DNA of 64,000 nucleotides. It comes from Amoebophrya sp. A120. Taxonomy: Eukaryota; Protista; Dinoflagellata. Numbering within the stretch: the first letter of the stretch is position 1; each line of letters starts with the position of its first letter. The DNA lies in the NCBI GenBank assembly GCA_905178155.1, contig CAJINV010000008.1, positions 558,001 through 622,000 of the forward strand, given 5' to 3'. Shown one piece after another: positions 11,674 to 59,453 of the stretch. A program made the position numbers and the translations under genes. The notes under the pieces are model-generated. The model was not told the origin of the DNA. It searched no databases and saw only the letters and a program-made list of their open reading frames with translations.

Positions 11674-13229
11674 TCACTTCTCCGCCAGCTCCGAACGGGC
11701 CCAGAAGACCGCGCCCGCACAGAGCACCGCCAGTCCCTGCGCAAAGAGCGTCATCTTGTGGCCCCAGAGGGGCGGAAATGGCGCCGTGAGGATGCAGAGC
11801 ACGCTGCACAGGTACGCTGTATCAAATGTAAAAATGTCTGGGTCTGGAAGATTCTGAGACTTGTCATGCATGTTTTGCATTGGCCATGATGTCTGTGATG
11901 CATGCCCTAGCATCACAGATTTTTTGAGGGCTTCGCGATGCCTATTCCGCATGACAAATGCCCTCTCCGCGTAGCAAAAATTGCATTCCCTTTGCTGCTC
12001 ATGCAATACAGATTTTTTTGGAATCCAAATTCAGCATCACAAGTTGCATTCTTCCAGACCCAGACATTTTTACATTTGATACGCTGCCATGGCGAACCAC
12101 TTGTGATTCCAGTACACAAAGCTATCAAGTGTAAAAATGTCTGGGTCTGGAAGATTTCTAGATTTGTCATGCATATTTTCCATGACACATGATGTCTGTG
12201 ATGCATGCCGTAGCATCACAGATTTTTAGAGCGCTTCCTCATGCCTATTCCGCATGACAAATGCCATCTCCGCGGAGCACAAAGTCTACTCCTCTTACTG
12301 GTCATGCAATACAAATCTTTTTCGAATCCAGAGACAGCATCACAAGTTTAGATTCTTCCAGACCCAGACATTTTTACAGTTGATAAAAGCTGTAGCAGTA
12401 CCACAGTCTGACCGACACCTTCCCGCTGATCCGTTTTAGCCTGCTCGCACAGGACTCGCCCTCCTCCGGATCGGGCTCACTTTCCGTACTTGCAACGGCA
12501 ACCGCAGGGGTGGCAAGCAGCCCAGTAGTCGCATTTGCAGGGGCCTCCCCAAGTCTCTCAGGCCGGGGTGGAATTTTTCCGAAGGCTCGCCCAAGTCCGC
12601 CGGTGAGCTGGGTAAACACTAGCAGCAACAGGACCAAATACCCGCTAGCCATGTGGACGAGGTTCGGGAAAAGCGGGTCCCAGACACCGTTGTTAAAGCC
12701 AAACTGTGACTTTCCCATCCTCGCGTGGTTGCGCCAGATAAAGCTCACTCCGACGAAAAACAAAGCCATCGCCGTGACTTGCACACCTGAATGAGTGAGA
12801 AGTGAGGATAGAGAAAAAAAATTGACTTCCGCCCCAACAGCAGTTTGCAATCGGGATTTCCTAGTCTTCACGCGAAGCGCCGTCAAAAGAATGCCTACAA
12901 AACTTCGCATATTGTAAAATACTCAAATGGACGTATTTTCTTCTGCCGACAGATGATGCGACTGCGCCGTCAGTGGAGAAATACTGGCGGGGAAAGGCGA
13001 CGAGTATGTAGCCAGCGCTCATGCAAGCGAAGCCAGAAACCATGCAGATGGGGTGCCATACAAACAGGTTGTCGAGGCCCATGTCGGCTGCAAACTTCAA
13101 AAGCACGGTAAGGATGAGCGCAACCGCGGCAGCCCCACTGCAGATGACGGTATATCGTGCCTCGTCCGGCAGGCCCTGCACCGCGTGCTTCATCCTTGCG
13201 GTGACATTCTCGGCAACCGCGGAAACCAT
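11674..13229 (-). CDS. Cytochrome b561 domain protein (4 exons)
   Basis: LFVWHPICM, YVHLSVQ, LVHMASG and reconstructed VYWNHKWF supply the four heme His. One canonical intron (12787-12922) and two TIR introns. Confidence 0.85.
11820..12081. mobile_element. IR introner (TATCAAATGTAAAAATGTCTGGGTCTGGAAG family), TSD CGCTG
   Basis: 31-bp perfect TIR; CGCTG at 11815-11819 and 12082-12086; removal restores MAA|YLCSVL. Confidence 0.95.
12123..12385. mobile_element. IR introner, same family, TSD AAAGC
   Basis: Near-identical TIR and homologous interior to 11820-12081; AAAGC at 12118-12122 and 12386-12390; removal restores CYSF|VYWNH. Confidence 0.95.
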
Positions 13230-13850
13230 TTTTTCAGATTGCCGTCACAAGCGTGATTTCTTGAGCAAGTGAAATCAACTTTACATCGATTTGCAATCTC
13301 GATTGGCGAGCGTAACGTAAACGAATTCAGGTGCAAAACAACTCCAGAAATTGTTCGAAAAGCGTAAATTTCGGGGGGGACGATAACTTTAGCTAATGTC
13401 TCGAACTACTACGAGCCGATTTTTATTCCTGATCTTTATGTTTATCTTCGTTTTCGAATCGGAAAATTTTATGCGTGTTGACGAAATCTACATAATTAAT
13501 CGACAGTGTGGTCGCTCGCTGTCGCTCTTGCGCTTATCTTGTCAATTCTCCTCGTTCAATCTTCACAGCAACGAGCAATAGAAAAAGAACAACTCGATCA
13601 TCTTCAAACATTGCCAAATCTCGTGACTAACGTCCAGAGCAGAATTGAAGCCTCCTGACTTTGATATCTTTTCAGAGGAAATTAAAGAAAAAAGCTAACT
13701 TCACCGACAAGATTTTTCTTGGAAAAAAACATGCAGGCATGTTTGCCATGCGTGTGCAAGTACTTATTCGGCCTGTATGACTGGATTCGTACCTTTCCTG
13801 AGAGATCAAGCAAAGGCAAACTAGATGCCGAAGCCCATTTTTACATTAAG

Positions 13851-15359
13851 TTACATTAAACCACAGCACGGCCCAGCTCTTCCGTTCGCACGGACCGCAA
13901 TATTGTGTGCGTCCTGTCGCGCTTTGCGTTCCGCCACAACTTGTTCGAGCCGCTGTTCGAAATTCTGCTTGAGTGCCTCGTAAGTGCTTGCGTTTTTTGC
14001 TTGCCACTCGAGACAGCAGGCGGGCGTCTTCGAAGGTGAGGGGTAGTAGATTGCGAGCATGGCCTTCTGCACGTCGTCATCTTGCAATACAGCTTGCCTC
14101 GCAACGCCGTCTTGTGCCTGTTCCGCGGCTACGTCCAGGACGTTCTCGATCACGTTCTCCTTCAGCCAGCCACACTCTCTCGTTCTCGAACAGCTGTCCG
14201 CGCGACCGTCCGCGGATTCTGCCAGCTCGATCAAATTCCAGTGATTTTCGGCCCAGCCGTCATCGATCCGTCGCACCGCATGTAAAATGAACTCCTTGCT
14301 CAGCTGCAGCGCATCGGCCGCGAACGCGAAGGGCTCTGCTGACGGATCCGAACTCACCGCGACCTTGCACAGCTCGAAGTCGGCTCGCGGGCCGTCGCGC
14401 GCAAACTCCAAAAAATTCCCGCTCTTCTCGTCCGGCACAGCGGCCGCGGGGTCGTTCGGATCTACGGCCGTCATCTGCAGCAGCTTTCGCAGGGACTCCT
14501 TGTCACTCTTCAACTCGCTCGAGCAAAACGCGAGAGCGTCGCAGGCCCCGAACTTCTTGAAGTAGGCAGCGCACTCCTGGAGCGCGCCTTCCGACTGTTC
14601 TGGCGGCTTTTCGAGCAATTCCAGCCGGTCCTCAACCCACTGCGTCGGAACATCTTTTTTGGCCTCCGCCAGGGCGCGCAGCTTGCTGCGGATCGCGTCA
14701 ATCCGCAGGCACTCGTCGGGCATCGCATGCACAAGGCGGGCAATTTCCCGCTTGTTGGAAACCTGGTCGACTTCATTGGAGAGCAACTGGTCCAAGGCGA
14801 GCACCGCAAACTTGACGTCCTGGTCCCCCTCCCGGTCCGCCTCCGGGTCAAAGTTTTTTAATTCGGCAGCGTCCCCGATCCCAGGTGGTCGCTTCAGCTC
14901 CTCGGGAAGAAACTTCCAGTACACCTGGCTGCTTTTCTGAATGCATTCCGCCATGAACTCGCGGTCCAGAAACCGCTCCGGGGGGGTGACCTCCAGCACG
15001 GTCAGAAGACCCTCCCGCTCGATCTCCGCCCGGGCGAATGCCGCCTCCTTCTCCAGGCGTTCCTGGTACGCTTTGGACAGCATCAAGTCCGCTTTCTCCT
15101 GCTCCTTCCTCCGCTCCGCGCTCCGCTCCGCCGCGAGCGCAGCCAGCCAGGCCTGCTCCTGCTCCTCCGGGTCGGGAACCTCCTCCCTCCGGCGCCGCCG
15201 CCGCATCCGACGACGGTACGCCAGGCTGGCGTGGTAGGGCGGACGGACGACGCGGCCCCTCAGCACCATATTAAGTACGGCACGGAGCAGAGAGCAACCG
15301 GTAAAAGCAAATAGAGAAACGCAAAAACCTACCTCTACAAGTGCCTGTGCTTCTGACAA
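13851..15359 (-). CDS. DUF4116-like repeat protein
   Basis: 502-aa ORF with repeats ALAFCSSELKSDKE, ADFELCKVAVSSDP..FAFAADALQLSKEFILHAV and DREFMAECIQ..KFLPEELK. Start uncertain. Confidence 0.6.
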   Translation of the reverse strand: MSEAQALVEVGFCVSLFAFTGCSLLRAVLNMVLRGRVVRPPYHASLAYRRRMRRRRRREEVPDPEEQEQAWLAALAAERSAERRKEQEKADLMLSKAYQERLEKEAAFARAEIEREGLLTVLEVTPPERFLDREFMAECIQKSSQVYWKFLPEELKRPPGIGDAAELKNFDPEADREGDQDVKFAVLALDQLLSNEVDQVSNKREIARLVHAMPDECLRIDAIRSKLRALAEAKKDVPTQWVEDRLELLEKPPEQSEGALQECAAYFKKFGACDALAFCSSELKSDKESLRKLLQMTAVDPNDPAAAVPDEKSGNFLEFARDGPRADFELCKVAVSSDPSAEPFAFAADALQLSKEFILHAVRRIDDGWAENHWNLIELAESADGRADSCSRTRECGWLKENVIENVLDVAAEQAQDGVARQAVLQDDDVQKAMLAIYYPSPSKTPACCLEWQAKNASTYEALKQNFEQRLEQVVAERKARQDAHNIAVRANGRAGPCCGLM

Positions 15360-15916
15360 TGCGCGCGCTGAGATCGTGTCTCTGCTTCAATTTCAAATGA
15401 AGACCAACATAGATACACCAATGCGATTGGGATGTTTTGTAGATGCGACCGATCGTTACGCTCTCTCTTAATTACTGCCCCGGTCGCCTGTTTGACGGAA
15501 CTCGAACTGCACCGTGGCCGTGCACTTCCTCTCATCAAATTGTCAATCACGTTCGTTCGTGTCACTCTGAGGTTTTCTTCGTTTGATTGACGGTTTTCCG
15601 CTACGCCGTCATCTGGTCAGGCTCACAACCGGACGAACATTAAACCAAGCATCCAGCACGTGTTTGGCCGACGTCGCTTTAACCTCGCATCTATCATGAT
15701 CAATGCTGTGTTTTATTCCGCAAAAGCAAAGCAAACCTGTTTGCAAGGTGCGGGCTAAAAACACCTTTTCTATATTGATTTTTCTTCTTGAGCGTTTATT
15801 CCATGTAGCATGAATGAATGTGCAAAAACGGCAGACAAGCAAAAGGGACATTTTGAGGAACGCAGCCTGCAGAAAAAATGCGAGTCGGTGTACAGCTCGG
15901 ACCGCCACTCGTTATT

Positions 15917-18372
15917 TCAGGTCGCTACGATTTCCGCGATGCTTTCCTGGAATTTCCTGATGTGCGAGCGCAGCCGCTTGTTCTCCTTCTTGATCATATC
16001 CAGGTCTTTGAGGACCACGGAGGTTTGCGTCCCGAACATCTTTTTGTCCGCTTCCACGTCCTTGAGCTCGAATTCCATCTGTTCCAGCTGTTCCACGAAC
16101 TGTTCTTCCTCCGCGCCAATCATGCCCTCTATCCTGAGTAAAAATGTCCCCACACCAGAGTCAAGATGGGGATTTTGCAGCACAAACCTAGGAGTTTTGG
16201 GAGTCACGCATGACAAGTTTCAGTCCGTAAGGTAGTGCAAGTTAGCAAGGAAAGCCGCATCACAAATCGATCTGCTGATCCTGTTTACAGCATTACAAGT
16301 TCCCAAACACGATCGAAAATGCCTGTCATGGGGTTGCGCATTACAAATGTTCCTGTCATGGCAAATCTGCATGACAACTCTGGGGTGGGTACGTTTTTAC
16401 TCAGGATACCCTCCAGAATGTACTTCTTGTCCTGCAACTGAATTTCTTCCCGCTTCTTCTCCTCGAGCCGCTTGCGGCACACAAGCATGTCTTTCGAGAT
16501 CTCGAAAATGCCGCCTTCGAGGTCTGTCATGTGAGGAACATGCTGGCGCGCAATTCTCGAAATAAATAGACATCGCGATCGGTTGGCGTTCGTCTTTCCA
16601 ACATATCATCGATGCTTGACATTGAGAAAGTCGAAAAATTCATTTTCATTCTGGTACAATTGTCAGATAAAAGTTTTAGGTTGGTGCTGCTTGATGCTCC
16701 ACCTCTAAGATTGATACCTTTGATCTTCTGAACATGTTCCTTTTCACGGGCGGTGAATGCGGTACTGTCGCGCTCGATGTTTTCCAGTGCACGCTTCTCG
16801 TCCCGGTCGAACTTGGCTCGGTCCACCTCCAAGCTGTCTAGGTACTCGGCGAGGAATTCGTAAAACGTTGCGTCGTCGAGCCGCTCCTGCTCTCGCTTTT
16901 TCTGGTCCACGAGCACAAAAATGGTTTCTTTCGGGAGCAAGTCTGCAGCGGATATACCCACCTTCACGTCCCCGATGGACCGCTTTTGTTTCTCCTTCGC
17001 CTTGCCACCACCGCCCTCCTCGTCGAGGTCTTCTTCTTCCATTTTATGCAAAGGCAATCAATCTCAATGCCCAGTCAGAATCGTGGGCTTCGCCGTCTCC
17101 CTCGAGGTGCGGTTCTTCGCATCTAGTACTAACACAAAACAAATTACACATGCACAACTAGTACTTCGTACCGTGCTACACATGATCCAACGTACACACA
17201 TTTCTGACAGACATTGAAGCGCTGTTTGCCAGTGTATTCTTCTTCCTCCTCCTCTTCCTCTTCTTCGCGCTCGTCCAGGTCCCCAGGCGATTCATCGTCC
17301 TCCCTGGAATTTTCGTTTGCTCGGTCACAAGTCTGTCACACCGATCCAGCGCAGCCAAGCCTTGTGCTTGTTCTGGCGCTCGACCGGAAAAATAAGTAAA
17401 TGTCAACCGAGAAAGGAAATAAGGCTGCCACAGCTGCTATTTTATCAGAATACTTTTTTTCAGCTTCCGGAGGCGGTTCGTTCTCCATTTTGTATGCGAC
17501 AGCTGCGCGATTTCTGCGGCAGCGTTCATTGATCTTCTCGAGCATTAGCTCCCCGCAGTTACAGCCGGCCAGCTTCATCACGTATATCGAGCCATTTTCG
17601 GCGAAGGCTTCTAGGATGTGTCTTGCCCCCTCCTCACCCAGTTCTGGATTGTTGGACAGGTTTAGGTGCGTGACCCCGACATTCTCGCGCATGAAATCTG
17701 CGATAGCCCGGCCGCACTCCGCGTTCAGGTGGTTCTGCTGCAGCTCCAGCCGCCAGATTGACACGTTGTCCGCCAACTTGTGCAGAAACTCCTTGTAGTT
17801 CTTCCTCCCCAGGTCGTTGTGCGTAAAGTTTAGGCACGAGATACTTCGGTTCCCACTCAGACCCTTAGTTTCAGTGTTCATGTTCTTTTTTTGAAGTTGT
17901 GCAAGTACCGATGATCGATTCTTGCCTGCTGTTATTTTTTTACACTTGCTCAAGTGGTTGCCTAGCTCCGCATAGGGCTGACGTTCGGCAGGCACACATT
18001 CACATGAGTACATGTACACACACTAGTATTGCACTGAAATTACGACGCTTCACGATGCAACATAAATCGCGATAAAAACGCTGCGTGAAGATGTTGAACA
18101 TGGTCGCTTCGACTTACCTTTGCCAGCTTGCCCAACGCTTCGCCGTCGATTCCCATCCCGCGCAAATCGAGGGACTCGAGAAAAAGGTGGTCCCGAATCC
18201 AGTTCGCAAAAGTATCCGGTTCCTGTTCGAGGTTCTGGCCCTCGAGGCCGCCAAACGAAAAACTGACGTGCGCCGCATACGACTGCCCAGACAACCAATC
18301 CTCAAACTCGGTGGTCTGCCGCTTGTTCACTTTTGCCTGGGAAGGCGACGAGGGAGTGCTTGGGGTCAACAT
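15917..18372 (-). CDS. Leucine-rich repeat (RNI-like) plus C-terminal coiled-coil protein; possibly two genes
   Basis: LESLDLRGMGI, VTHLNLSNN, LELQQNHL. Canonical introns 17864-18117 and 16524-16717, TIR intron at 16130-16408. Junctions around 17040-17460 unresolved. Confidence 0.65.
16130..16408. mobile_element. IR introner (TATCCTGAGTAAAAA family), TSD CCCTC
   Basis: ~32-bp imperfect TIR; CCCTC at 16125-16129 and 16409-16413; removal gives KKYILEG|MIGAEEE. Confidence 0.93.
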
Positions 18373-18794
18373 CTATTTCAGACTCGTAGGCATGTGCGAC
18401 ATGAAGATGAGGTAGAGGTACATAATCAACCAATAAAAGGCATCAAGAACTCATGAAGTGTCCAAGTAAAAGACCGCCGAAATAAAGCCCTTCAAGCTCA
18501 TCAACAGCACTTCGGCCAGAGTAGGTGCCGCAACCCAATGAATACTCACCGAATTATCAGGTCGTGCAGAAAAGTAGCATCGATTCCAGTTCCATCTGCA
18601 AGCAGAGCAAAGTACTTAGAAAGCAAGCGACAAGTAAAGAAGCAGTGGAAGATCACGACAAAGACACCTTTACGATAGGACCACGAAAAAAGCCGCAACG
18701 AAGCACACCATTTGCTACACGGATTCCAATGCGTCGACACCTTTGGCACACAGACTCAGATTATAATGCCTCGACACTTTGTAGTCGCAGAAAA

Positions 18795-20617
18795 TCACAT
18801 GACGCCAAAATTTTTTTTGATAACGCTGTTGAGTTCTTTAAAATCCAAGCCGAGTCCAAAATATTCTCCGGTTTCAAGCACAAAGAGCTTCACGCTCCGC
18901 ACGAGTGGATCGAATAGCCCGCCTAAGGGGACAACGGCATCACTGCTCCGATCATAGTACGAAAAGACATAGTCAAAGCCTGCCACTTGTGCCAGTGCGG
19001 CGCGCTGAGAGTCCAGCTGTCCGTCAAACGAGAAGTAGAAGTATCCTTGATCAAGAGCCGTGCCGGTTTCCGAAATCTGGTTCGAGCCTGCTTGTATTGG
19101 TATTAAATCAGCGGTCTGCGAGTGCGACGCAACTGACAGGACTCCGCTTACGTCAGTCGGTTCTGCTGCTATTCCGTTAAAATCCAAGTTGAGCAGAAAC
19201 CCTGTGAGCTGGCGATACACAAAGAACGTGACGGGGCGCGTAGGTAGCACCTGGTCAAACTATTACAGTGAAAAGTCCCCCCCACCCTTGAAATTGCAAA
19301 AATTTATTGTGATGCGAAGTTTCCAAATGAAAACTTTTTGTCATGCATGAAAGAAGTATGAATCTTTCTGCTGGAGAGTCTAGGCGTGTATCGCATCGCT
19401 TGCATGACAAGCGCCGCTCTTGCTGGGGTCTTTTGCAATACAAATTTTTGCTATTCACGATTGGCAACCTGTGATGCTGATAGCTGCAAGACGAGGGCGA
19501 ATGTTTCATTTGGAAAGGTTTGCAATACAAATGCTCCCAAGTTCGGGGGTGGGGGCATTTTTCAACTTGATACAAACCGGTAATGAAGGAGCGAAGCCTG
19601 CTGCTTCTCCACCTCAGAAAAATCCACCGCGCACAGAATCGCTTCCCATCCCTGCACCCATTTCTCCATGCCGTTGTAGTAGCCATTTTCCAGCTCGAGC
19701 GCGTACCGCGAATTGCGAAGGACCCCGGCTGCCGCCGCACGTTGCGGCTGTGCTTGTCTCGCATTTTCTGCGAGATGACCATCATTCCAATTCTCAACAT
19801 CATCGTAGAAAAACCCGAAGCCAGAGCAATCCTTTAAGAGTTTCTTCTCCAGAAAAAAGTCCACAGCCTCGCGCACACCCGGGTCGAAGCGCTCGGGCTC
19901 ACTGCCACGGCTTTTCGTATTTCCATAGTCCGGAAAGAGAATCTGTGTTCCCGGTCCGACGATCTTCGCCCCCCCTGTAGCCTCTGCCGTCACAGCACTC
20001 CGTGCAGTTGATTCCCCGTTTTCATCTTCCCTCACCTCAAGCAACAACAGGTTCAGAACGTCTGAAACAACCCGATCTCGAAGGTGGCTGGCATGCACAA
20101 GAATAAAGTCGTACGGCCCGTTTTTCCGGATCAGCGGCCAGCCGTAGGAGCTGCTCGAATACAGGTCAGCGTCGACAAAAAACGCGTTTGGCTGGTCTCG
20201 GATGGCCGCTTGGCAAGCGTCCACGTTTCGGTTGTCGACAAGGACGGACTTGGTGCGCACTGTCGGAACCACTCTACGACTAGCTTCTCCCGCGCCACAG
20301 CCGAGCTCGAGGTACGAGGCAAACCGGTTCTCCAGCGCAAATTCGCCTAATTGCCGATAGAACTCCGCGGTAAACGTTTCTCCGTGTGGATTGAATGCGG
20401 TGACTTCATCACGTTTCCCCCTTTGCTCGCTACTAGTGCCGGTCTTTGCGCTATACCACGCTGTGAGGTTCGCCTTCGCAATATCACGATTCTCCTGCTG
20501 TCCGGACGCAAGCAGAACCGAAGCGGGTAAGAGCGTGGCCAGCACGAGCACCCGCAGCACAGCGGCGCACGACAAGGAGCTACAGTCGTCTGCACCAAAA
20601 CACAAGTTCTGCCGCAT
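18795..20617 (-). CDS. Secreted/luminal class I SAM-dependent methyltransferase (Methyltransf_24-like)
   Basis: Signal peptide; YLELGCGAG, GPYDFILVHASH, ILFPDYG..PGVREAV. Continues through the TIR intron into 18795-19250. 3' end uncertain. Confidence 0.7.
19261..19572. mobile_element. IR introner with eroded TIR, TSD CAAAC
   Basis: TATTACAGTGAAAAGTCCCCC vs reverse complement TATCAAGTTGAAAAATGCCCCC; CAAAC at 19256-19260 and 19573-19577; removal gives HYRF|DQVLPTRP. Confidence 0.88.
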
Positions 20618-21337
20618 CCTGGTTGTATTCCCGAACGCAAACTGGAGTTAAAGTTCTTCAAAAGATGTAAGAAGCGTGTAAACGAACACAAAGCTAAAAT
20701 AAGCTCAAACAAAAACCTTTTTTAAAACCGGCGCAGAAAAGCATACGAGCCAGCAGGCCGAACATAGAAGTACCGTATCGAAAACGAAACCAGAAGATCA
20801 CGATCAGTCGTTGTGTTGTCATTATAGCACAGTAAATTACAAGCACCCCCCGCCGGGCGGCACAATAGTGCCCAGCCTTTCTATTTTTTGAATACTCCAC
20901 TTGAACACAGATTATAATACAAACATCGACGATCGCACGATGGTCAGTCGTGGGCACGCCGACTTTGCTGCGGCAGTAGTGAAAAATATACCTTTCCTTT
21001 AGAATATTGCTCCCTCACAGGGTGACGTGCACTTGCTGAAGTATTGAAATCATCTCAAGTGTGGTCACGAATCTGGCTACTGTGGGCCAGAAGTCAGAAT
21101 CACATTTTTCACATCGCAAACGCAAAAACAAAATAGAGAAGTTCGCTCAAAAATAAAATTCAAACGCTTTTCACTTCACTTCGAGGGGTGGTGGTTGGCG
21201 GTGGCCTCTTCGCATGTGGCTCACTAGACCGGGGCAGGGAACGACGCAACGCTATGCACCACGGGCACGCGACTACCAAATGCCAGTGTGGACGCCAATC
21301 CGGGCAGGAGCACATGCCCATTAAGCTACCTATTTGT

Positions 21338-27991: not shown

Positions 27992-29588
27992 GATTGACTT
28001 GGTAGTTGTGCGGGCTTACAAAAGATGGCCGAAGACCTACTTACTTGAAATGGCTCACATCAGCAACAGGCCGGTGACACTATCGTGCAATTAGATACCA
28101 TACCCAGGTGCGAGATGGAACTAGACAAAAAAACGTTTTTTAACGAGCTACTGTAGGTCTCCTACAACCACCGGCGTCAAGTAGGAAAAGAGTGTGCCAG
28201 TTGGGTTCCTGACGTCGAAAAGCTTACAGTTGCAACCGTTAGGGTTAATCTGGACGTCAAGATGCTAATCGCTTGTGTATTTTAGGTACTTACGTCGAAA
28301 TGCACCACACTCACTGTATCGTTGCAAGTACGACCGACGATTCATTGAAGAATGTTCTTTCTTTTGCGATTGCTCCAGTACGATGCGGTGGCGAAGATTC
28401 ACCATCACCCAAGTCAACCGATATTATCTGTCAGTAGTACTGAAGCAGCCATCCGGCCATGGCTGCAGCCATAAGACCCCCACGATTCGACCCGCATGTC
28501 AATGTCGACGATTAGTCCCCTTGAGAGCCAGCAGCGCAAAACAACAATCGCTGTCGAAAGAGGAGCGGACGCGCCCGCACGAACGAATCCGGCGTCTTCA
28601 TCATTTCGTATTTCTTTGGTACATTTGAATGCGCATTTCTCGTCTTCGTTGTCGGTGAAACTAAAATGAAACAGCTACAACATTGTACAAGATCTTCTGT
28701 CGGTTTCCTTGGTGCGGCAAAGGCAATGCAGGTATCATATAGAAAATTCAGTCGAAGAGGATGAGGTGGTTCTATTGTGTATAGCCCGACCTAGTGTATC
28801 TATTGGACTTCGTAAAATTTGCTGAAAATCGACAATGGCTGATGTAAGAACCGTTAAGCACTTCAATTGTGAGAGGGTCAGAATGCACTCCTGCTTCATG
28901 AACGGAGATTGATTTCATGCTGTTTGCGACAATGCACTAAAAGGTTTTTGCATTTTAATCACCGGTCTACTTGGATGCCTCCCTACTGGTAGAGGCGCCC
29001 GATCCACTCCGCACGGTCCACGTACTGCCTCTGCTTCAGCAGCTGGGAGATGTTGTCAGCTATCATGCGGAAACACGTAACCAAGGCCGAAACAATTTGG
29101 CCTTTTGGCAATGGCAAATGCTGTAGACTACTTCTCTTCTGCGCATAGCAATAGCGACCGTCAGGATTCCATACCAACACTGCTGTATAAACTTGATGCC
29201 AAACATCATCGATGCTGGGCTACATGTTTCCTTATGATATTACCGCGAGCGTAAACATGGCCGAACACCCCGTCAGCGTATTTCCCTGGAATGAAACCAG
29301 TGTAGCCCGGTACGTCGGTCCCCCTGTAGAAATTTCGGATTTCTCTTCTCCTTTGCAAATCGAAATGCAAGTAGGCACAGATTCATTCCTTCACAATGCA
29401 TAGATATGAGCGTAACACATTCGCATTCCCTCAATCAGGAAGAAAGTACCTTCTGTGGGGCAGGGTGACACCGAAGGGATTGTGTCGTGCGTAATTGTGT
29501 GGCTCCTGTGTATACTGGTGGTCATCGAGTAGCCTCTCTTCGCACTTGATTGCTGCAAGCTGGTTTGAGCGATTGAAGGTACTGGAAA

Positions 29589-46793: not shown

Positions 46794-47349
46794 GAGATCT
46801 TCCCGCCCTGTAATCTACGATCAACCACTGCAACACGCCACGACAAGCATTTTTCTACTTCTTCATCATAGTCCTCCCATCGATTCTACCGGATCGACGC
46901 GTGCGCCCCCTATCGAGGAGGCAGGCCGTCGTGTGGTTCATCTGAATCAATGTCGTGCTTTTCGTATTCATTCTCACTCACTGTCACTGTGTGGGTTCTC
47001 TACAAAAAAGAACGCACCCTCTTCTAACAGTCCTCTTCCGCTGCGGTTTTGTCCTCTACGGGCAGCTAGTCTTGGTTTTCAACTCAGTGTCTGTTTGTTG
47101 ACTAGATTCACGTACCTGACACTGACGAAAAACCACTCTCCTTGTCCTTACCTCCTCGCTCTTTGCCGGAGCCGCAATAACCAGGCGCCTTTGACACTCA
47201 CACTCCCGCGGATTGATCCTGGCTGATATTCATCCGCACAATGAGTTTTTACACTATCGGCGCCAACACTTTACCGAGGGATGAACAGAAGCTACACACA
47301 CGCGAGGATGGAAACCGGGGTCTTCAAGCTTTGTCTTTGCGACAAAGCC

Positions 47350-50300: not shown

Positions 50301-50907
50301 CGTCACGCTCCGAGCTGACCCCGACGGGAAAAAACCAGTGGCGCGGATGGCTGCTCACCAGTGACCGCTTCTTTGCAGCTTCATAGAAAGTCGTGGCAGA
50401 AAAAGCGGGGTCGAAAGAAAACACGTGGCAGCCGAAGTGCTCCAGCGCCATGTGCTCAAACCACTGCCCGCCCTTCCAGTCACACGGATCACCGACCCCA
50501 AAGGACAGCGCCACGCACCAACCATTTCGCCGCTTCTGCGCGCCGACCTGATCGGACAGTGAGCTGAACGATTCGGATTCTGCTGCTGGCGCTGGCCTGC
50601 CCGCCTCATTATAATCATCATGCGCTCCTTCCGTATTGCTGTTGTTGTTCTCCTCCTCTGCGAAAGGCAGAGCATCTCCGCATATTTTGAAGGGGTCGTC
50701 GTCGACCGTCTTTACGAGCGGCCGCCGACAGACGTTCCCCGCGGCAGGCCGCAGCAGCATCTCGAAACCGTGCCAGATTTCGTTTCCGTCAGGAGCGTCT
50801 GTGCTATTCGCATGATATCGGTACCGAGCTTCAGCTGTGAGCACGCACAGAGCCAGGCTAGTTGCGAGAAGAACAAACGAGAGCCGTCCGCCGAAGATCA
50901 GCAACAT
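47350..50907 (-). CDS. Secretory-pathway fusion of a METTL24/Methyltransf_22-like domain and a fucosyltransferase-like GT-B domain
   Basis: Signal peptide; LSFGVG..FE..GCHVFSFDP, LLRMDIEANEW, QVLFEIH; then GGLGNRL, VVLHARGGDR, STWSSFS. Confidence 0.72.
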   Translation of the reverse strand: MLLIFGGRLSFVLLATSLALCVLTAEARYRYHANSTDAPDGNEIWHGFEMLLRPAAGNVCRRPLVKTVDDDPFKICGDALPFAEEENNNSNTEGAHDDYNEAGRPAPAAESESFSSLSDQVGAQKRRNGWCVALSFGVGDPCDWKGGQWFEHMALEHFGCHVFSFDPAFSATTFYEAAKKRSLVSSHPRHWFFPVGVSSERDANFGDDLDELLGSAEFVGPSPSEDGESPSTTLEQREGVVHQLGEEATICATASEAAASLQSQIADNTKESMRLVSLGTVGKMVRKVLHWFSPGPLPVALLRMDIEANEWPILEELFATAGTTDDGTSAAGGTSSHQHGGTAGEELWTNYVNMNVDQVLFEIHLGATRERNLRENQLLMELQRRYRVFYVDRNPAVSGWTTYGRLIPHINHGYKRPWFVTKCHELGLVRRKPVRASVVVGTGNKSMDKNTAMHLPEAEMDPGVDEDLVLHTSGNPGGLGNRLGWLFTVAAIGYSMRAKKVVTFWDEEADVQHYSCSAATGTSRSADTTPCVSGYDARTLLQLVQLPEILHVIVGRERYFAYLEKLKSEGAAPVGGRVTSSSKAGDHAQTAVKLMQIPFHPPPYPNDYTAEPAWDMWLRWAQLGIFPDPMLSRAEFLHIYRTRVYNSRPYFEALQPNSLSPSLDLTPRNSDQVSSGNAHQEQPFRPVDGVAKCFFERYYHSSAPTEVGLRVVLHARGGDRRTLSTSDGITSLALFAARQLMSSRRHEKGANPTSLQFRVLSPDADLRDSVRARVREIAEDYGSVFFAEDGNLHDQRVEQCVMRAVDEGSSKPDADSQSRKRIMNTVRTMVDFFHVYFSHAFVFASSKSTWSSFSITAALAGGHSAVFLPVESVRDSFPGNVRENGNFGIPMRSVFLGTAEVGKFVAASWNNLIAASSTSKLADLKKQNQVSEPHELSPLPNILFAVRNILAERPKSEEVHWSALLRESAVVLLSRVLSRTKSIFRTRNLIERRSGTKKNIDADAHSHPSTWSTWMNKTSRVFPAYKHFSQKNIFYGAARLLMSHLPLFPSEVLRDALPTSTRLRERTLGGSQNVEHFRNLTRLGERDASIALPSSHNFALLHTAGVRMKNLNDRIDTITWLAEVIEKVFDLADTVPYHAKTGYPTFAMRSWWPGSPDLPLLKLQLLLRKVCNSEDSEVQLSWRVL

Positions 50908-51248
50908 CTTTTCTTTACATGCACTGACAAAAGCACCCGCACCACATTCAGGCAGCTACGTGCGCTACGAGCATTTGTTTCCTTAGCAAAGCAAACCGGA
51001 AGACAAGTACACGAGAAAACAAAGAATAAAGTCGAAGAAACCGAGAAAAGCAAAAATGACTTGCAAGGCGGGACACCAGGTCTTCGATGCCTCGATTGAG
51101 CACATCAAGTCGAACACAGTGACACCTGCCCTCTGAGTCTCAGGCCACAGGGCTTGCGTCTTCAAGGGTACTTAGATGCGCTTGGCAACTTCAAGAATAG
51201 AGATGTCGCTTTTTTCATGTCATTTTTTGGCGTTCGCGGCAGTGCATC

Positions 51249-53618
51249 TCAGGCAGTACCAGGGATCTTTTTTTGCAGTTCCCGGACCTCGTTCAGCAGA
51301 AAAGCCACCCGCTCCAAGGGGAATAGCCTCGACTGGTCCGCCTGCGCCAAGGTCCGCTCTAAATCGATTTTTTGCCCGATCTTGTTCAAGAAGCGATCGA
51401 AACTCTTGACCTCTATCGCGACGAAAAAATCTCGGCATCGGTTCGAATACCACAACCGCAGCAGGTTTAGCGCGTACGTTAGCACCTCACTCGCATCCAC
51501 AAGCGAAAAATCTGATCCCAAGAAGGAATCATCCCCTTCCAGCAACGCGCGCAGCACGCTCTCAAATACCGCCGCTAGTCTCGCTTGTTGGTTGTTCTTG
51601 ATCCGTTCGACTCGGGCAATCTCGGCATCCACGGAGTTGCAACTAGTCCCTGTGCAGAGTTTTTCATCTCCCTGCGTACCAAGATCTTTGTGCGTTATCT
51701 CCATCTTCGCAAGGCAGTCCCAGAACTCGGCCTTCACGGAGCTTAGCACAGGTGGCAGCACTTGCTGGTGAGCGCTCGGCTTGAGGCAGTACTGCACCAC
51801 CGGCCTGAAATACTGATCCCAGCGAGTCTCCAGGCCGACCAGCTCCGCCTCCATCGGGCTATTCGGCGCCTTGTCGGATGTTGACTGCTGACGCACGTTA
51901 GCGGCCGCCCTGAATGATACCTCATAGAGGGCCTTCTCCATGTCGCGATACAGTACCGTGCGGGTCTGCGCATCGCGGACGTCCGCGTCTGCGGACTGGA
52001 GGAGGGCCGGCTCCTGCAAAACCAAAGGAGCCCCGGTCGTCGCCGCACTTATCTTTCGCTTCGGCTCGCCGTGGTCTTCGGGGACCGCCGTAGCAAGTGC
52101 CTTCAGAAACTCGAGGTAAAACGCTGGCGGCAGCAATGACAGGTGCCCCGACGGAGGCGGAGTGTCGCACATGACCACCTTCAGCAGGGGTCGGAGGAGG
52201 CTGTCCCACAGATGAAAGGCGGCTGCGAACTTGCGATGCACAAGCAACGCTTCGGTGGCGCACCGCAGATAGTCGTATCGAGTCGCATGGCTCCACACAC
52301 AGGGGAGGTAGGGACCGCATTTTCCGTCTACCTCTACGCTACCGTTTTTGATATTCGCACGTGCCGAAGATAAAACCGATCCGTGCTTATCACTGGGCGG
52401 TGGGGGATCCAGTGGCTGTAGTGAGTCAGCGGTCGTTGCTTTGCTTGTGCCGGAGGAGGCTGTCTCGGGGGAAGGGGCGGAAGTGACAACGGATGTCGTG
52501 CTCTGATTTTTGCGACCCCACACCAGCGAACTGCATTCGGCAAAGTACACGAAGCTGGCCAACCCCAACGGGGAAACTTCGTGCTCGGGCCCACTCTGAG
52601 TTGTCCGGCGAGGAGCAATGCTGGGCCGGTTACTGAAGGACAAGCACGCAGCGGCGCGACACAGGTAATCCATCTGCTGTCGTGTCGACAGTTGCATCTC
52701 GGCCTCGGTCTCGCCCGTGCGGCTCGACTGCAGCACGTCTTCGCATGCTGCAGTGTGCTGCTGTTCCCCTTCCCCCGTGTCCTCTACCAGCGGACATTCG
52801 GGGAAGTCTGCCTCGCCCCTTAGCGTTTTCCCAAAACACGAGAGCACGGGTCGTGACTCCTTATCTTCGCCACAACTCGCCATAAAAATCTTCTCAAACA
52901 GGGCGAAGACAAAGGTCGAAATCGCCTCGGTGGCCATCGTCTCTGGTAAAACGTCCTCGTGGGCTCCCTGCTCCTGCTGCAGCTCCCTCCCGTCTGGCGT
53001 GAGCACGAGGTTCCGCGCGAGCTGGAATGCAGGTCTCGCGAGATACTTCAGTGTCGTCGAAACACTTGCGTGTTTGAACAGCAAAAACGTGTGGGGTAGC
53101 GAATTGCACACGATCCGTGAACGGAAGCGCGTTGCCGGGAGTACGCGAATCTGTCGCACCAAGGATTCCGCGATCAGCCCTTTCGTCTCCCAGGTCCTCC
53201 GCCCCAGGGCGCCACCGGTTCCGGTCTCGCTGTTCGCAGAGGGCAGCATTTGCTGCTCGAGCAGAAAGATAATCTCTTTCGCCTTGTCACTTTTCCGGAG
53301 GAGCTGGGGCCAGTACTTCGTTCGCACGGGCAGCTGGAATCTCGGACAGTCGTGCAGGCGCAGCAGCGCGGGCACCATCACCTCAGCCAGGTGCTGTCCC
53401 GCCAACGCGTCCTTGGCCGACCATTCGACCTGGTCGAGTGCATCAATGAAAGGGCTTTGGCCCTCGGTGTTTGCGGTCGTGCCTGCGAGTGGTCCTCCAC
53501 TGGGGTCGGCAACAACGAATTGCTCCACTTCTTCGTTCACCAGCGCCTGCAATGTTTCCAGGTTCGGAATGTCCTTTTCCCGCTTCGTCGCGGAAGCCTT
53601 CGCGAAAAACCACTCCAT
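51249..53618 (-). CDS. Helical protein, glomulin/ALF4-like
   Basis: 789-aa intact ORF. C-terminal SLVDASEVLTYALNLLRLW resembles the glomulin family motif (recalled, not searched). Confidence 0.5.
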   Translation of the reverse strand: MEWFFAKASATKREKDIPNLETLQALVNEEVEQFVVADPSGGPLAGTTANTEGQSPFIDALDQVEWSAKDALAGQHLAEVMVPALLRLHDCPRFQLPVRTKYWPQLLRKSDKAKEIIFLLEQQMLPSANSETGTGGALGRRTWETKGLIAESLVRQIRVLPATRFRSRIVCNSLPHTFLLFKHASVSTTLKYLARPAFQLARNLVLTPDGRELQQEQGAHEDVLPETMATEAISTFVFALFEKIFMASCGEDKESRPVLSCFGKTLRGEADFPECPLVEDTGEGEQQHTAACEDVLQSSRTGETEAEMQLSTRQQMDYLCRAAACLSFSNRPSIAPRRTTQSGPEHEVSPLGLASFVYFAECSSLVWGRKNQSTTSVVTSAPSPETASSGTSKATTADSLQPLDPPPPSDKHGSVLSSARANIKNGSVEVDGKCGPYLPCVWSHATRYDYLRCATEALLVHRKFAAAFHLWDSLLRPLLKVVMCDTPPPSGHLSLLPPAFYLEFLKALATAVPEDHGEPKRKISAATTGAPLVLQEPALLQSADADVRDAQTRTVLYRDMEKALYEVSFRAAANVRQQSTSDKAPNSPMEAELVGLETRWDQYFRPVVQYCLKPSAHQQVLPPVLSSVKAEFWDCLAKMEITHKDLGTQGDEKLCTGTSCNSVDAEIARVERIKNNQQARLAAVFESVLRALLEGDDSFLGSDFSLVDASEVLTYALNLLRLWYSNRCRDFFVAIEVKSFDRFLNKIGQKIDLERTLAQADQSRLFPLERVAFLLNEVRELQKKIPGTA

Positions 53619-54527
53619 TGCGCTTTTACAAAAGAAAATAAAATCGGTCGATGAGTATGGGAATCTTCATCCAGGGGACTACGTAATAGGGCTGCGCGAG
53701 GTAACTATCACGACGTCCATGTCAGTCAATGGAGAGCCTCGTCCAGGTACGGAGAAAAGGGGTCGCGAAAAACCACTGAAAAAAAGTATCCTCTGCTGTT
53801 TTCAAATGCGAACCAGGGCTACGTACTTATTTGATGTGTTATTTTATTCATTGCTCTCAACTCTAATGAGAACTCGAATGATTTTGCAAGAATCAAGCTG
53901 AGCATTTGATGCGTTCCATGGGACCAGTCAATCACACCCACATTTGAGATCCCGTATCTACTGCTTGATCCTGAGTTTTCCTATAGCTCCTGCACATTTG
54001 ATGAAGAACGGCGTCTTAGTCATTGATCAAATTTGCACGAAAAATTCATTTCCAGAGGATCCGTTTTTACAGGTAAGAGCGCATTCTTCCATTTGCCACC
54101 TTGATCTGCCGTCTTTCTCAAAATGCCCGTGAGAGGCGTCAAGGGTTCAAAGACCACCTGAAGAACAGGCTCATTATCGACTTTCTCTGTCCTTTATGTT
54201 TTCTTGCCCCGGTAGCTGGCTTGAATAGCTAGGATGAACTACGATTTAAAATTGATTCGGATGGTGCGGAGCAATATCAGACGACAGATAAAAATTATGC
54301 ACTGTACAAACCACTGCAGCATCGTTGTGTCCGTCCCCGCTGCTGCGACATCATATTCTTGGTTCCGGTCGTGGGAAACTGCTAAAATCAATAATATTGG
54401 TCAAAACTCTGACTTTGTTTTCAACAGGGTTGCGATACGCCGCTCTTCCAGGTCACAGAAACCTTCGTGGTCAGCTCCTATGTTTATTTTACGCTGCTCG
54501 ATTAACTTCCACAGTTCTTTATTTTTT

Positions 54528-57500
54528 CTAATTGTACTGCGAGAAGAAAAATCCAAGATTGGAGTTGAATTCCTCGGAATTCCACTCCAGAGGCACATTT
54601 GACTTTCGTGGCTTTTCGACACGCGGCGCTGCCTCCGGCGCAATGCGTTCGTTGATCACCCCCGCAACCTGGGTGGAGTCCACGAACCGGAGCCGGTTTT
54701 CGACGGGCAAGCAGTTCTCGATCGCGGTGTGAAGTTTCTGCAAGACTTTCGCTTCCACTCGCCCCTCTTTGTGTTCGCGCGCGGTCAACAGCTCAAAGAA
54801 GGAGGTGTACATCCTGGACTCCTCCGCGCACAAATCCTCGCACTGTTTGCGCGCCCAACTGCGGATTTGTTCCACTTTTGTCAAGTACACCAACCGCTCA
54901 GACACCAGCGCCTGCTGCTCATCCAGCTGCAACGGCGTCGGTGGCCCATCCTCCTCGGTGATCATCGGCTCCAGGGGCCAGCAACACTTGTTCGCGTACT
55001 CCTCCAGTTTCGCCAAAAAAGAAAATTCGTACGTCGCACTGTCCTCGCTCCGCTCCCGCGCCGAGAATGGCTCCGCCTCGTCCTCCGCGGTGCCCTTCGC
55101 GATAGCGATTTTCTCGGGAAGCGGACGCGGTTCTGGGATATTCCGGTTCTGCATCAAGGCGTAAACGTTGCACAGCAGCTGGCTGGTCAGGTGATACCGC
55201 TCTGTCTCGACCGCAACCTGCAATTGCAATTATACGGCTAAAATTTGCTTAAGATCTCCGTCTTCATCCACGTCGAGATCGATGTAGAAAACAAAGACTG
55301 CGGTGAATACCGAGGAGGCCAATTATTTTTTTCCTTAAGATCAGTGCGCAAAAGAAATTAAGGTTAGGACAACATCTAGTCTCCGATCGTGCAAATTAAT
55401 ATCTTCGTTCGTGTGGGTGTGGCGTCTTCAAATCATAGATACTAGATGTACTCGATTACCAGAAGCTCGCTGGCAAGGCAGACAGTGTTGACGGCACCAT
55501 CGACAAACCCGCTGGTCTTGATGTCTTCTATGAAGGCCTGCGTCTCTACCCGCTTCTCCTCGCGGAAGGAGGCAAACTTTTCCCGCATCATTTGCAGTCG
55601 GAGGTGAAATTCTGCTCGCGGTTTATCGTCCAAAATCATGTGTGGGTACTCCGCGTTCCATGAGTTGTACGCTACGATGTACTCGTTGAGGAGGCCCTGT
55701 TTTTCCGGCTTCTCGCGCTCCAAAAATGACACGAACGATTCCCGCAGGTGCGACAATCCTTGGGCCGACTCCCGCAGAAGCTGTTCGTACTTTTGCAGGG
55801 CCAGTTTGCACTTCTCCACATACGGGTCTTGGATTTCCAGCCACTGGCCGTGCAGAAGTTCGAGGTACCGATGCTCCAGTTGTCCACACTTTTTCTGTAC
55901 ATCCTCCAGCGGCAGCAGCAACGACACAGCCTCCGGCTCCGGCACGGCCACGTCTTGTTCACTCTGTCCTGCAGCCGCTGCGTCTACTTCCGGCGATGAA
56001 GCTGGGGCGGCTTCTACAGCGACCGCGTCGACTGCCTGCGCCTGCTCCTCCTCCTCCCCTGCTGGTGGCCCCGAGCTGCTCGCTTCGAGAGCAGGCGCTT
56101 GATTGGTTTCCGGAACGGCTTCCTTTGCACTCGTTCGAGCTTCTAGCAACCCCTGCAATCGTTCGCGCACGTTTTCAAACACGTGCTCCGGTGCGTCTTC
56201 GCCGACGACTTGCAGCCGCGGCATCTCCGAAAGTGGCGCAAAGAGCTTCAAAAAGTCGAGCGTCTCGACCTGATTGACATCGAAGAAGTGCATACGCTCC
56301 ACAAACGTACCCTGCGCCTTCTCCTTCAGATCCAAGGCACGCAGGTTTTCGTACCGGATATCGGCAGGCTTCTTTTGCTGATCATCTGCCACGTTGTAGA
56401 CGGTTCTCGTTGTCAGGTCGATCCGCCGGCCCGCAGAGCGCAGCACCACCGCCTCGCAACTCGCTTCGAGCAACAGGTACAGGTCGTACCCTCCTTGTTG
56501 CGGGACGAACGGCTCCGGCACCTTTGCGGGCCCGGGAATCAGCAGCTCGACGGCCAACTTTCGCTGCGCACCCTCGGTCTCCTCGCACTGCGAGGGTTCG
56601 ATAAACCCGCACAGTGCTTTCTCCAAGAGCCGCATCTCCTCGAGCGTTGCAGGAAAGCCAGACAAGACCCACCCCGTCTTCATGGTCGGTTCCAGGCTCT
56701 TCAGCTTGCACACGATCATGCGGACGTACAGCTCCGGCGGTATCACCTCGCCTTCGTCGAGTAGCTGGACCGCGCGCACTCCGCACTCGCGGAGTTGCAT
56801 CAGGTACTCGTTCGCGCTGGCGTCCACACGCGGGGCGTGTGCATTGGCGTGTAGAGAGTCCAAGGACCCCTCTTGCGGCCGGCCCGCGAGGTTCATGGCT
56901 TGCTGGAGAATTTCCGTGCACTCCAGCGCTTCCACGCCGAATTCATCCGCAAGTTTTCGTGCCACGGTCTTCTTCCCGGCCATAGGCTTGCCTTGCAGAA
57001 CGATTCGCAGCGGCACGTCGGGCAGTGGATCCGCCGGAGGAATGATCTGCTGCGGCTCTGGGTACAGCTGCGTGATGATCTCCTTGAGCAACGTCGATAC
57101 CCGGAAGTTTGTCACGCGGCTGCTCACTACGTCAGGCTCCGGTGTTAACTGCAGCTTGTAGGCCTCCGGCAGCTTTTCCAGCTCTTCCTCCGTCAGTATT
57201 CTCCCCCACGGATTGTTCACTTGCTCTTCGTCCGCCCCACCTTGGGGGGCCTTTGCATCCTCCAACCTGTTCGCGCGAAAAATGGATGATCCAGTCACTG
57301 CCCACTGGTCCTTGCCGTGCAGGTAGCTTTCAAAACTTCCTTCGAGCAGCTCCGCAGACTCAAAATCGAGCTTCTGGGAATCGTCATATGGTCCCGCTTG
57401 GTAGGGCCGCGTGGCCGGCTCCTGGTGCTTCCGATACAGGTCCTCCAGCGGTTCGCTGTTAATGAAGCTATCCATCCAGTTTTTCCACGTTCGGTCGTCG

Positions 57501-59453
57501 AGGGCGCGTTGGTCCGTCAACTCCTGTTGCGCGTTCGCCAGGTTGAGGAGCTCGATCATGCTGTCAGTCACTATATTCTCCACCAGGGTGACGTGGTAGG
57601 CTCGGCGACGAGCAACTCGACCGCGTTCCAGCGCGCGGTACCACTTCGCATCGTTCACCTGCGTTGAACCGAACAACTCCTCCACCTGCAGGTCCCGCAG
57701 CTCCCCGTCGCGCGTCTTCTCCGCCTCGTTTTCCCTTTTCCGCTGCGCGTCGTAGTCTTTCATCCGCAGCCGTCGGTCTTCCCGCATGATGGCTTCGTAC
57801 CGACTGGTCTTCCAGACCAGGTAGTTGATACGCTCCTCTTCCACGCAAGGCTTCGTGAGCTGCTGCAACAAATGCTCCTGGAGGTAGGTATCCTCTTCCA
57901 TTTCGTGCTCCTTGGCGAGATCCACCAGGAATCGCCGCCGTCGCTTTTCCCGCTCTTTCCGGGCCAGGTTGCCGGAGACCTTGCTGTCCTTGATCCGTGC
58001 CAAAAAATCCTTTGCGTCCTTCAACAGCACTTCCGGAGCGGGGACCTGCGCGCTCATCGACGACATCAGGTCTTTGGCAGAAAAGGCTTTGGTTGTTCGC
58101 TGCACCAACGCCGCGCCGCCTCCGGTGCTTTCGTCGTCGTCTTCCGAACGACCGTCGTCGTAGTCTTGCTCTGTAGCTTCCTGCATGTCCAAGGGAATGC
58201 TGCTGCTCTCCGCCTCGCCGCTCGTAAACTTGCGCAGATTTCGTTCAAAGTCCGCGATGCCCTGCGTCACCTCTTGTGTCTTCGTCGCGCGAAGGTGGTG
58301 AACCGCTTGGCGCCGGCGGGTCGAGAGGCGCTGTTTGTAACTGGCCTCCAGACGCTCCCGGTGCCGCTGCCGGGAAAGGTTCGCCTTCCAGTCCATCACC
58401 CCCTGCTCGTTCCACTGGTCCATGAAGGCCCGGTTCCGCTCCACTATGTCCAGGCACACCTTGCGGTGCGTTTCGCGGTCGTCCAGCGCCTTTTCTGCAT
58501 CCACTTTGTCCATTTCCGCTGCGAGCATCTGCTGCGAGAGCTTTTCGCGTTCGAATCGGTTGTACCGCGCCTCCCGCCGCTGCAAAGTTGCGTAGGCGCA
58601 TTGGGCACGCAGTCGGTTGACGAAGAACCTGGACTCTTGCGCGTCCGCCGAGGGTTTGGTATCAAATGCAAACATGTCTGGGTCTGGAAACTTGTAATGC
58701 TGAGTGACTTAGCTAGCATGTGGAGGCCACAAATGCTGGCTCAGCATGGAAAAGTTCCTAGGCTTCTACGTGTATTCTGCATGACAAACTGCGTTTCTGG
58801 ATCACAGAAAAATAGGGCTTTTGGGTAAAAACGAGCATGACAGACTTAAGAGTCTTGCTAGCCTAGCATGACAAAACCTTTCCAGACCCAGACATATTTG
58901 CATTCGATATTTGGGAAGACGAAACGACCGCGCAAGCATTTTGGGATCTTTCACTATCAGACTATCGCTGTGCTGGCTCGCCGGCATGCTGGGACGCTGC
59001 GTCATTGCCACGCGGTCTATCACCATCTTGATCTGGTACAGCAGCTTGAGTGCGCATCCCCGCTTTTTGCTCATGATCGCTTCTGCGTCGTGCGGGAGGA
59101 AGCGAATTCTATCCTGTGCAAAAGTATCGTACTCGTATAAATGCATTACAAATTTCCTCAGCAAGAGAAATAAAATTTGTAATGCTGATTTGCCTTTAAT
59201 GCATGACTGCAATACGAGTACGATACTTTTGCAGAGGATAAATTCCGAGGTTCTTCAGATTCGGCTGCAGCTCCGTGAAGTTCGCAATTTGGTCATCGAT
59301 CAGATCGGTGTCTCGAAACCGGCCGGGGAACTCGAGCTGCTGATTGAATTTCGACAGCAGCGCACCAATCTTGTACCCGTTCGCAAGATCGGCCTCCTCC
59401 TTCGCGTCACTGCCGCCGTACTCCTGCACCCACTTCCAGAGAACCTCCGTCAT
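54528..59453 (-). CDS. SPEF2: Sperm flagellar protein 2-like (CH domain, coiled coil, adenylate-kinase-like domain)
   Basis: DLANGYKIGALL..NFTELQPNLKNLGI..ALKLLYQIK; GKPMAGKKT; GWVLSGFPAT. Two TIR introns and an intron at ~55220-55460. Further 3' exons probably extend to ~53900. Confidence 0.8.
58660..58909. mobile_element. IR introner (TGTCTGGGTCTGGAA family), TSD TTTGG
   Basis: TIR related to the 11820 and 12123 elements; TTTGG at 58655-58659 and 58910-58914; removal gives FRLPK|PSADAQ. Confidence 0.94.
59110..59240. mobile_element. IR introner (TATCCTGTGCAAAAGTATCGTACTCGTAT), TSD AATTC
   Basis: 29-bp TIR with 1 mismatch; AATTC at 59105-59109 and 59241-59245; removal gives NLGI|RFLP. Confidence 0.94.

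Follow-up and report, generated by a model that had tools for sequence, protein, structure and literature searches.

We describe a short DNA word, GCATNACAA, in a 64-kb window of the genome of Amoebophrya sp. A120 (contig CAJINV010000008.1, positions 558,001 to 622,000 of the forward strand; the window is this whole stretch of 64,000 nt). Within the window, all exact copies lie in six short introners, termed E1 to E6, which start with TAT and end with ATA. We propose, with a probability of roughly 0.6, that the word, better spelled GCATBACAR, represents predicted double-stranded DNA binding sites of one shared mobilising protein, phased and independent of orientation, in non-autonomous TAT…ATA transposon-introns. 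The elements insert in either orientation with a 5-bp duplication of an arbitrary target.

The window contains 19 exact copies, 14 on the plus and five on the minus strand. In 100 dinucleotide shuffles the mean was 2.06 and the maximum 6, and 19 copies were reached in 0/100. All 19 are located in the 1,497 nt that the six elements comprise together, and the rest of the window has none. An earlier note on this DNA, made from the letters alone, had listed these copies, expected about two by chance and confined them to about 1.5 kb of six elements; every coordinate was exact, and both statements were borne out. When up to one mismatch was allowed, 30 copies were within E1–E6 and 49 in the remaining 62,503 nt. 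As a control, six canonical GT-AG introns defined by transcript contigs (1,085 nt) contained no exact copy and one one-mismatch copy, where about 14 copies are predicted at element density. Equal frequency in canonical introns or other DNA, which the note had named as an argument against a specific signal, is therefore not seen in the window. A comparison of the window with Rfam gave 0 matches. Likenesses to RBFOX GCAUG, ApiAP2 TGCATGCA and the Pho box were set aside, as the middle base varies, orientation is not fixed and, within the window, the motif is confined to the elements.

To find the elements, we looked for inverted TAT..ATA ends flanked by a direct repeat. Coordinates, type of terminal inverted repeat (TIR), target duplications and motif positions with their strands are as follows.

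11820..12081, E1, 262 bp TAT..ATA introner; duplication 11815-11819 / 12082-12086; exact motif 11861(-), 11949(+), 12034(+); variants 11893(-), 11910(+).
12123..12385, E2, 263 bp, E1 family; duplication 12118-12122 / 12386-12390; exact motif 12164(-), 12252(+), 12337(+); variants 12196(-), 12213(+), 12299(-), 12306(+).
16130..16408, E3, 279 bp, CCCCAC-type TIR; duplication 16125-16129 / 16409-16413; five exact motifs, all (+): 16208, 16257, 16290, 16338, 16369; variant 16177.
19261..19572, E4, 312 bp; duplication 19256-19260 / 19573-19577; exact motif 19307(-), 19338(-), 19402(+); variants 19435(+), 19469(-), 19522(+).
58660..58909, E5, 250 bp, E1 TIR but different interior; duplication 58655-58659 / 58910-58914; exact motif 58692(-), 58779(+), 58866(+); variant 58835(+).
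59110..59240, E6, 131 bp, GTATCGTAC-type TIR; duplication 59105-59109 / 59241-59245; convergent exact pair 59143(+), 59177(-).

The target duplication is exact in 6/6 elements and 5 bp long, within the 3-5 nt junction repeat known from A120 introners. All four TIR types of the window begin TAT-N7-AAA (12/12 ends), which is the published A120 consensus. Since the ends fit this consensus of Farhat et al., E1–E6 match A120-type introners; relatives at 79-98% identity, together with the contig depth given below, show that they are repeated genome-wide. E1 and E2 are ~85% identical, and E1, E2 and E5 have one TIR in common, so the six elements are taken as at most five interior types. The middle base of the motif was G in 90, T in 57, C in 51 and A in 1 of 199 copies. 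Because it is almost never A, GCATBACAR is the better consensus, usually followed by A/G and TTT.

We extended the set with loci from a metagenome collection. Scanning with a TIR-plus-motif pattern yielded at least 164 loci, 163 of them in one assembly. The same pattern gave 0 matches in viral contigs and 5 in prokaryote genomes, and neither these five nor locus L146 has a TAT..ATA element. About 250 further elements were obtained from the outside loci. A motif-blind finder reported 233, of which 228 were below 400 bp; 141 of these match the search pattern and 87 do not. The latter are called unselected. E1 is 97.7% identical to one member (L118:301-562), and the outside set is therefore judged to stem from the same or a close species, not to be a distant replicate.

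The 87 unselected elements contained 146 exact motif copies, compared with 2.25 in shuffles; 77 of them had an exact and 85 a relaxed copy. De novo, the motif was the top gapped 8-mer. It was present in 95/104 classed unselected elements, and at least half of the members carried it in 12/12 hand-drawn TIR classes. Four further classes, with TIRs that lack the AAA of the TAT-N7-AAA signature, emerged from motif matches beyond the first library, and some TIR classes have only TAT in common, yet carry the motif. The earlier note had called the TIRs otherwise different. This holds for the wider set, but was overstated for the window with its uniform TAT-N7-AAA ends. Without an end-sequence filter, 231/244 candidates with a 5-bp duplication begin with TAT (0 in shuffled loci), and without a duplication filter an exact duplication of 5 bp was found in 169/209 elements and one of 6 bp in 0. 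The elements are thus short and non-coding with TIRs and target-site duplications (TSDs) of constant length, as are MITEs (miniature inverted-repeat transposable elements).

Several peculiarities of the outside elements were recorded. One of 209 (L066:1829-2108, 280 bp, perfect 25-bp TIRs) has an 8-bp duplication instead of 5. Four others (L051:1643-2273, L072:1501-2472, L022:1814-2270 and L073:848-1343) are enlarged by 180-710 bp of foreign or simple-repeat sequence, with ends and duplication kept. The left and right ends of one element often differ in their TIR, each carrying one of several discrete variants that are met again in other elements. In addition, one TIR is paired with two unrelated interiors (families 0 and 1), and together these features hint at an exchange of ends between copies. 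At L010, L024, L060, L067 and L099 motif copies, some in 32-33 bp pairs, occur where no intact TAT..ATA ends were recognised; these could be decayed elements that are still spliced.

The copies are arranged regularly. Pairs 31-33 bp apart were seen in the window at 11861/11893, 12164/12196, 12306/12337, 16177/16208, 16257/16290, 16338/16369, 19307/19338, 19402/19435 and 58835/58866. In 93 unselected elements, 49/139 consecutive same-direction spacings were 31-33 bp, while 500 random placements gave a mean of 5.5 and a maximum of 14. Among the 93 ends with an outward-facing site within 60 bp, 77 have the first such site beginning at a distance of 31-33 or 39-43 bp. In run X11, raw reads of a relative of the E5 end contain, 33 bp further along, a second site of which the first seven letters are visible. 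A spacing of 31-33 bp is about three helical turns and suggests helical phasing. Rayleigh tests of the end offsets gave p <0.01 for every period of 9-13 bp, so the period is not fixed and the test is only suggestive. The copies are repeated near both ends, conserved and strand-independent, like the subterminal repeats that transposases bind.

Orientation was evaluated against the transcribed strand. A codon model assigned the gene strand for 134/228 elements, with within-locus calls agreeing 78:3. By family, element orientation relative to the transcript was 17:24, 8:14, 12:9, 3:8, 7:4, 1:7, 3:1 and 1:2; no family had a significant bias (smallest p 0.07, with low power in small families). The motif was read 240 times in one direction of the transcript and 275 times in the other. 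The preference of the earlier note for a DNA-binding site is supported by this unbiased orientation, by the 31-33 bp pairs and by the lack of covariation between mirror copies at the free position (see below).

In the proposed mechanism, protein subunits would load on phased sites on the same face of double-stranded DNA and position the TAT end for cutting with a 5-bp stagger. Because specificity would reside in the internal word and TAT, the ~30-bp TIRs could diverge from family to family and yet remain self-complementary, and their hairpin in the RNA would act in removing the intron. A single enzyme would then account for many 'families'. The protein is probably an integrase-related DDE transposase from the IS3EU/GingerRoot/Ginger neighbourhood, a guess drawn, by analogy with IS3EU and GingerRoot, from the 5-bp stagger and the TA..TA ends; a published A120 family of ~810 bp (family 38, see below) is noted with the same duplication length and TA/TA termini.

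A number of observations weigh against this proposal. Only about 12 lineages, related to one another, underlie the end-phase rule, and in the GTATCGTAC class the end-proximal site faces inward. The outside set is one assembly. Its loci contain 48 exact copies beyond recognised elements (160,910 unmasked nt) with 4.9 expected; inspection of 32 leftover positions placed several in TAT..ATA elements of greater divergence and found others without clear ends. The earlier note had suggested a search for long TAT..ATA elements with a transposase frame. Seven candidates of 457-1104 bp were obtained, none with a frame of transposase length; six of them are 457-1031 bp long, and no stop-free frame exceeds 238 aa in any. 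Judged by frame length, neither a transposase nor a binding protein was found among these candidates. Farhat et al. likewise saw no transposase in A120 and rejected transposases as the general driver of mobilisation (PMC7789003; here and below, literature statements refer to the available parts of the sources). Motif density did not drop with decay of the duplication (1.26, 1.28 and 1.18 per 100 nt, p 0.83; the last class includes false pairs). Finally, singleton changes affected motif columns less often than other conserved ones (0.014 vs 0.025), which host selection could also give.

The last two points lead to the question of what the motif serves once an element has become an intron. Transcript contigs remove five of the six elements (E1, E2, E4, E5 and E6), each plus five bases. 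A contig of run X3 skips 267 nt at E1 and restores the open reading frame, an X3 skip of 268 nt removes E2, and one X3 contig joins 19255 to 19573 at E4 (317 nt skipped), restoring a 511-aa frame. In run X4, contigs skip 255 nt at E5 and 136 nt at E6. That X3 and X4 contigs represent RNA is a guess; the same contigs also skip GT-AG introns, whereas one of these introns is present unchanged in an X1 contig. For E3 no joint was among the matches listed, and splicing is inferred from the 134-aa frame that its removal restores. Taken together, removal of the element with one duplication restores frames of 299, 134, 511 and 1,210 aa. No GT-AG or GC-AG was present in any of the six equivalent registers of each element (6/6 elements). 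Raw RNA was sparse at 10500-20500, with 7 reads in run X9 and 1 in run X10. In run X1 the summed contig depth over the elements was 20,000-490,000, compared with ~43 elsewhere, a figure that does not give copy number. In ~340 raw RNA reads of run X11 a relative of the E5 end (58668-58701), from another locus, is still unspliced, so that an abundant transcript in this sample retains an element. Three further features belong to this comparison.

12787..12922 (-), canonical GT-AG intron in the E1/E2 host gene, a motif-free control.
55460..59465 (-), exons of a SPEF2-like host gene (CH_2, SPEF2_D5, ADK), interrupted by E5 and E6.
29061..29239, E7, a 179-bp, older-looking TAT..ATA element; TIR 13/15, duplication differing at 2/5.

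E7 has no exact motif and a single one-mismatch copy at 29143. Judged from the sequence, removing 184 nt here extends the frame to a plausible C-terminus. E7 is thus a natural case in which to test whether splicing requires the motif.

The copies may alternatively be a DNA-level splicing mark, in which a host protein on the phased chromosomal sites would recruit the machinery that cuts the hairpin from nascent RNA, replacing GT-AG and U1 recognition. We regard this as unlikely, although it fits every DNA-level feature, namely orientation, spacing and end distance. It would also explain the exact removal without a GT-AG register in 6/6 elements, the steady motif density with duplication decay, the low singleton rate and some leftover motif pairs at places without recognisable ends. 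Farhat et al. report that A25 and A120 lack U1 (PMC7789003). In contrast, motif density declines with distance to the nearest relative (1.51, 1.17 and 0.90 per 100 nt; rho 0.31, p 0.018, n=60, partly circular). Of the 87 unselected elements, 10 lack an exact and 2 lack any relaxed copy, and E7 has no exact copy, yet its predicted removal extends the reading frame. Moreover, sites at a fixed distance from both ends of the DNA are what a transpososome usually shows. The evidence is mixed and leans to mobility; with sparse sampling, selection on progenitors and on inserted copies are inseparable in these data. Both functions might also be combined in a two-layer code, an idea we likewise hold to be unlikely. 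Here the phased DNA word plus TAT would let one protein complex recognise thousands of elements with unrelated TIRs, and the same DNA-bound complex, or a domesticated copy, would also mark them for exact excision from RNA, without any splice-site sequence or U1. If true, this would be a DNA-directed, transposase-derived definition of introns.

Less likely again is that each TIR class has its own transposase and that a shared factor, either accessory or a DNA-bending host protein, binds the motif. The TIRs are indeed conserved within classes (0.91) and different between them, like separate MITE-transposase pairs, and site direction and number vary between classes. However, TAT ends and the 5-bp duplication are common to all classes (231 of the 244 candidates above), the same TIR occurs with the unrelated interiors of families 0 and 1, and gene-upstream DNA of the window contains no exact motif. 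The available text on A120 reports no set of transposases (PMC7789003).

A signal in RNA structure, or one read by an RNA-binding protein, appears improbable. In this case opposite-facing copies would pair and extend the terminal hairpin that draws the exons together. The outward-facing copies are mirror images at the two ends, and in predicted folds of E1, E2, E4, E5 and E6, 16-46 motif nucleotides pair with another copy (interior z -0.9 to -4.8). In E3 and its family, in contrast, all copies point the same way and the number of motif-motif pairs is 0. The free position of mirror copies was complementary in 19/45 and 1/32 cases (18.2 and 1.1 expected), hence no covariation was observed, which weakens the 'internal stem partner' that the earlier note had offered as an option. 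Transcript-sense terminal stems showed no excess of G-U over A-C (96 vs 113), and pairing would need no common sequence across families. A left-right covariation of the TIRs (p 0.005-0.01, 3/5 families) was discounted because the finder selects for TIR identity. Sense-strand target duplications contained AG in 34/134 and GT in 32/134 cases; therefore splice sites are not co-opted from the duplication. Introners with spliceosomal signals of the Aureococcus/Polarella type (10.1101/2020.10.14.339549) were rejected, as there is no canonical register in the window and the splice sites are not in the TSD.

Conservation of the motif was compared with that of its surroundings. Motif-masked, end-trimmed interiors form separate clusters, with E1/E2, E5, E3, E4 and E6 apart, and do not align between families. 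The end-to-end alignment that the earlier note had named as a sign of mere shared ancestry is thus not seen. In seven family alignments the consensus identity was 0.924 for fixed motif columns, 0.749 for the free position, 0.755 for other interior columns and 0.910 for the terminal 30 nt. Central copies never used by the search pattern gave 0.892, compared with 0.752. As alignment columns are not independent, p-values for conservation are only indicative. The paralogue variant at 16342 changes the free position only, and the fixed positions are untouched in 9/9 variants listed. That the copies are inert remnants of one ancestral element is very unlikely: the 85% identity of E1 and E2, their TIR in E5 and an AAAATG-C core common to several classes would fit shared ancestry, but the separate clusters, a motif conserved while its own middle base and flanks vary, and variants sparing every fixed position largely refute it.

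The elements themselves are known. A120 introners have been described with inverted repeats of TAT + 7 nt + AAA, direct repeats of 3-5 nt and non-canonical junctions (PMC7789003), and the TAT-N7-AAA ends, 5-bp direct repeats and non-canonical junctions found here are the same (PMC7789003, PMC12130899). Family lengths of ~107, 149, 209, 214, 252, 260, 278, 305 and 321 bp published in 2025 match our classes, and most families are labelled 'TIR DNA, Unknown' (PMC12130899). In contrast, an internal motif, its spacing and its orientation independence are not described in the available text of either paper (PMC7789003, PMC12130899). Family 38 (~810 bp, 5 copies, TIR ~50 bp) is listed as 'Ginger; 5-bp TSD, TA/TA termini'; its open reading frames have homology to Copia/Gypsy elements, which carry long terminal repeats, and its authors saw no homology to known Gingers (PMC12130899). 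By this published description, the TSD and termini resemble those of the elements here.

IS3EU and GingerRoot encode an integrase-related DDE transposase and share TA..TA termini and the lack of a nucleotide-specific target with our elements, but duplicate 6 bp instead of 5 (PMC10045372, PMC6839031). GingerRoot TIRs are 100-150 bp compared with ~30 bp here, and the word 'subterminal' is absent from the available text of that paper (PMC6839031). Ginger2/TDD has TG..CA termini and a TSD of 4-5 bp, so that the TSD length fits and the TA..TA ends do not. Filing under IS3EU or Ginger2 was therefore rejected, the duplication length failing the former and the termini the latter.

Subterminal repeats are present in hAT and CACTA transposons. 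In these systems, and in MITEs with such repeats, the TIR is also bound and defines the family, whereas here one word extends across classes that share only TAT, with a spacing of about three turns and in elements that are also introns. In the Emigrant/Lemi1 MITEs, short internal repeats near the ends are bound cooperatively by the mobilising protein (PMC1636448). Coral CMITEs are piggyBac-linked, are not introns and have a continuous homologous interior, while only a dispersed 9-mer is shared here (PMC2872659). Non-conventional introns of euglenids agree in non-canonical junctions, TIR pairing and TSD-like repeats; they differ in a short CAG/CTG terminal consensus and have no internal phased word in the available text (PMC11282704). 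The earlier note knew of no prior description of the motif, and none was found in the introner literature and supplement text searched, supplementary figures excepted. Subterminal protein-binding repeats are known in other transposons, and this motif is unremarked as far as searched.

The literature treats it as an open question how tens of thousands of non-canonical A120 introns spread and are removed. One of the reasons for dismissing general transposase action was that the families share no repeat signature (PMC7789003). One conserved phased word across at least 12 TIR classes suggests one system rather than hundreds. Such a code would unite otherwise unrelated introner families and make the open question testable, with the motif as a search key for the autonomous element and as bait for pull-down. 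It also separates two testable codes, the internal DNA sites and the terminal hairpin.

Other observations were made in the window. An intron-free DEAH-box helicase gene (Pfam), which we take to be PRP16-like, lies at 60221-63080. Raw RNA of run X9 in 45001-64000 covers this gene only. The depth there is ~400x and the identity mostly 99%; the poly(A) end falls at 60221, and breaks occur at 61399 and 63079. A ~660-bp element at 7017-7678 has a 40-bp TIR, ends other than TAT and no exact motif. Two GC-rich, motif-free inserts were also noticed. One at 5150-6590 (1.35 kb, internally palindromic with tandem repeats) sits within minus-strand coding-like sequence and has a 48-bp flanking direct repeat; the other, at 38751-39889 (~1 kb), has a flanking direct repeat of 56 bp. 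Both cases together suggest a second element type with very long target duplications.

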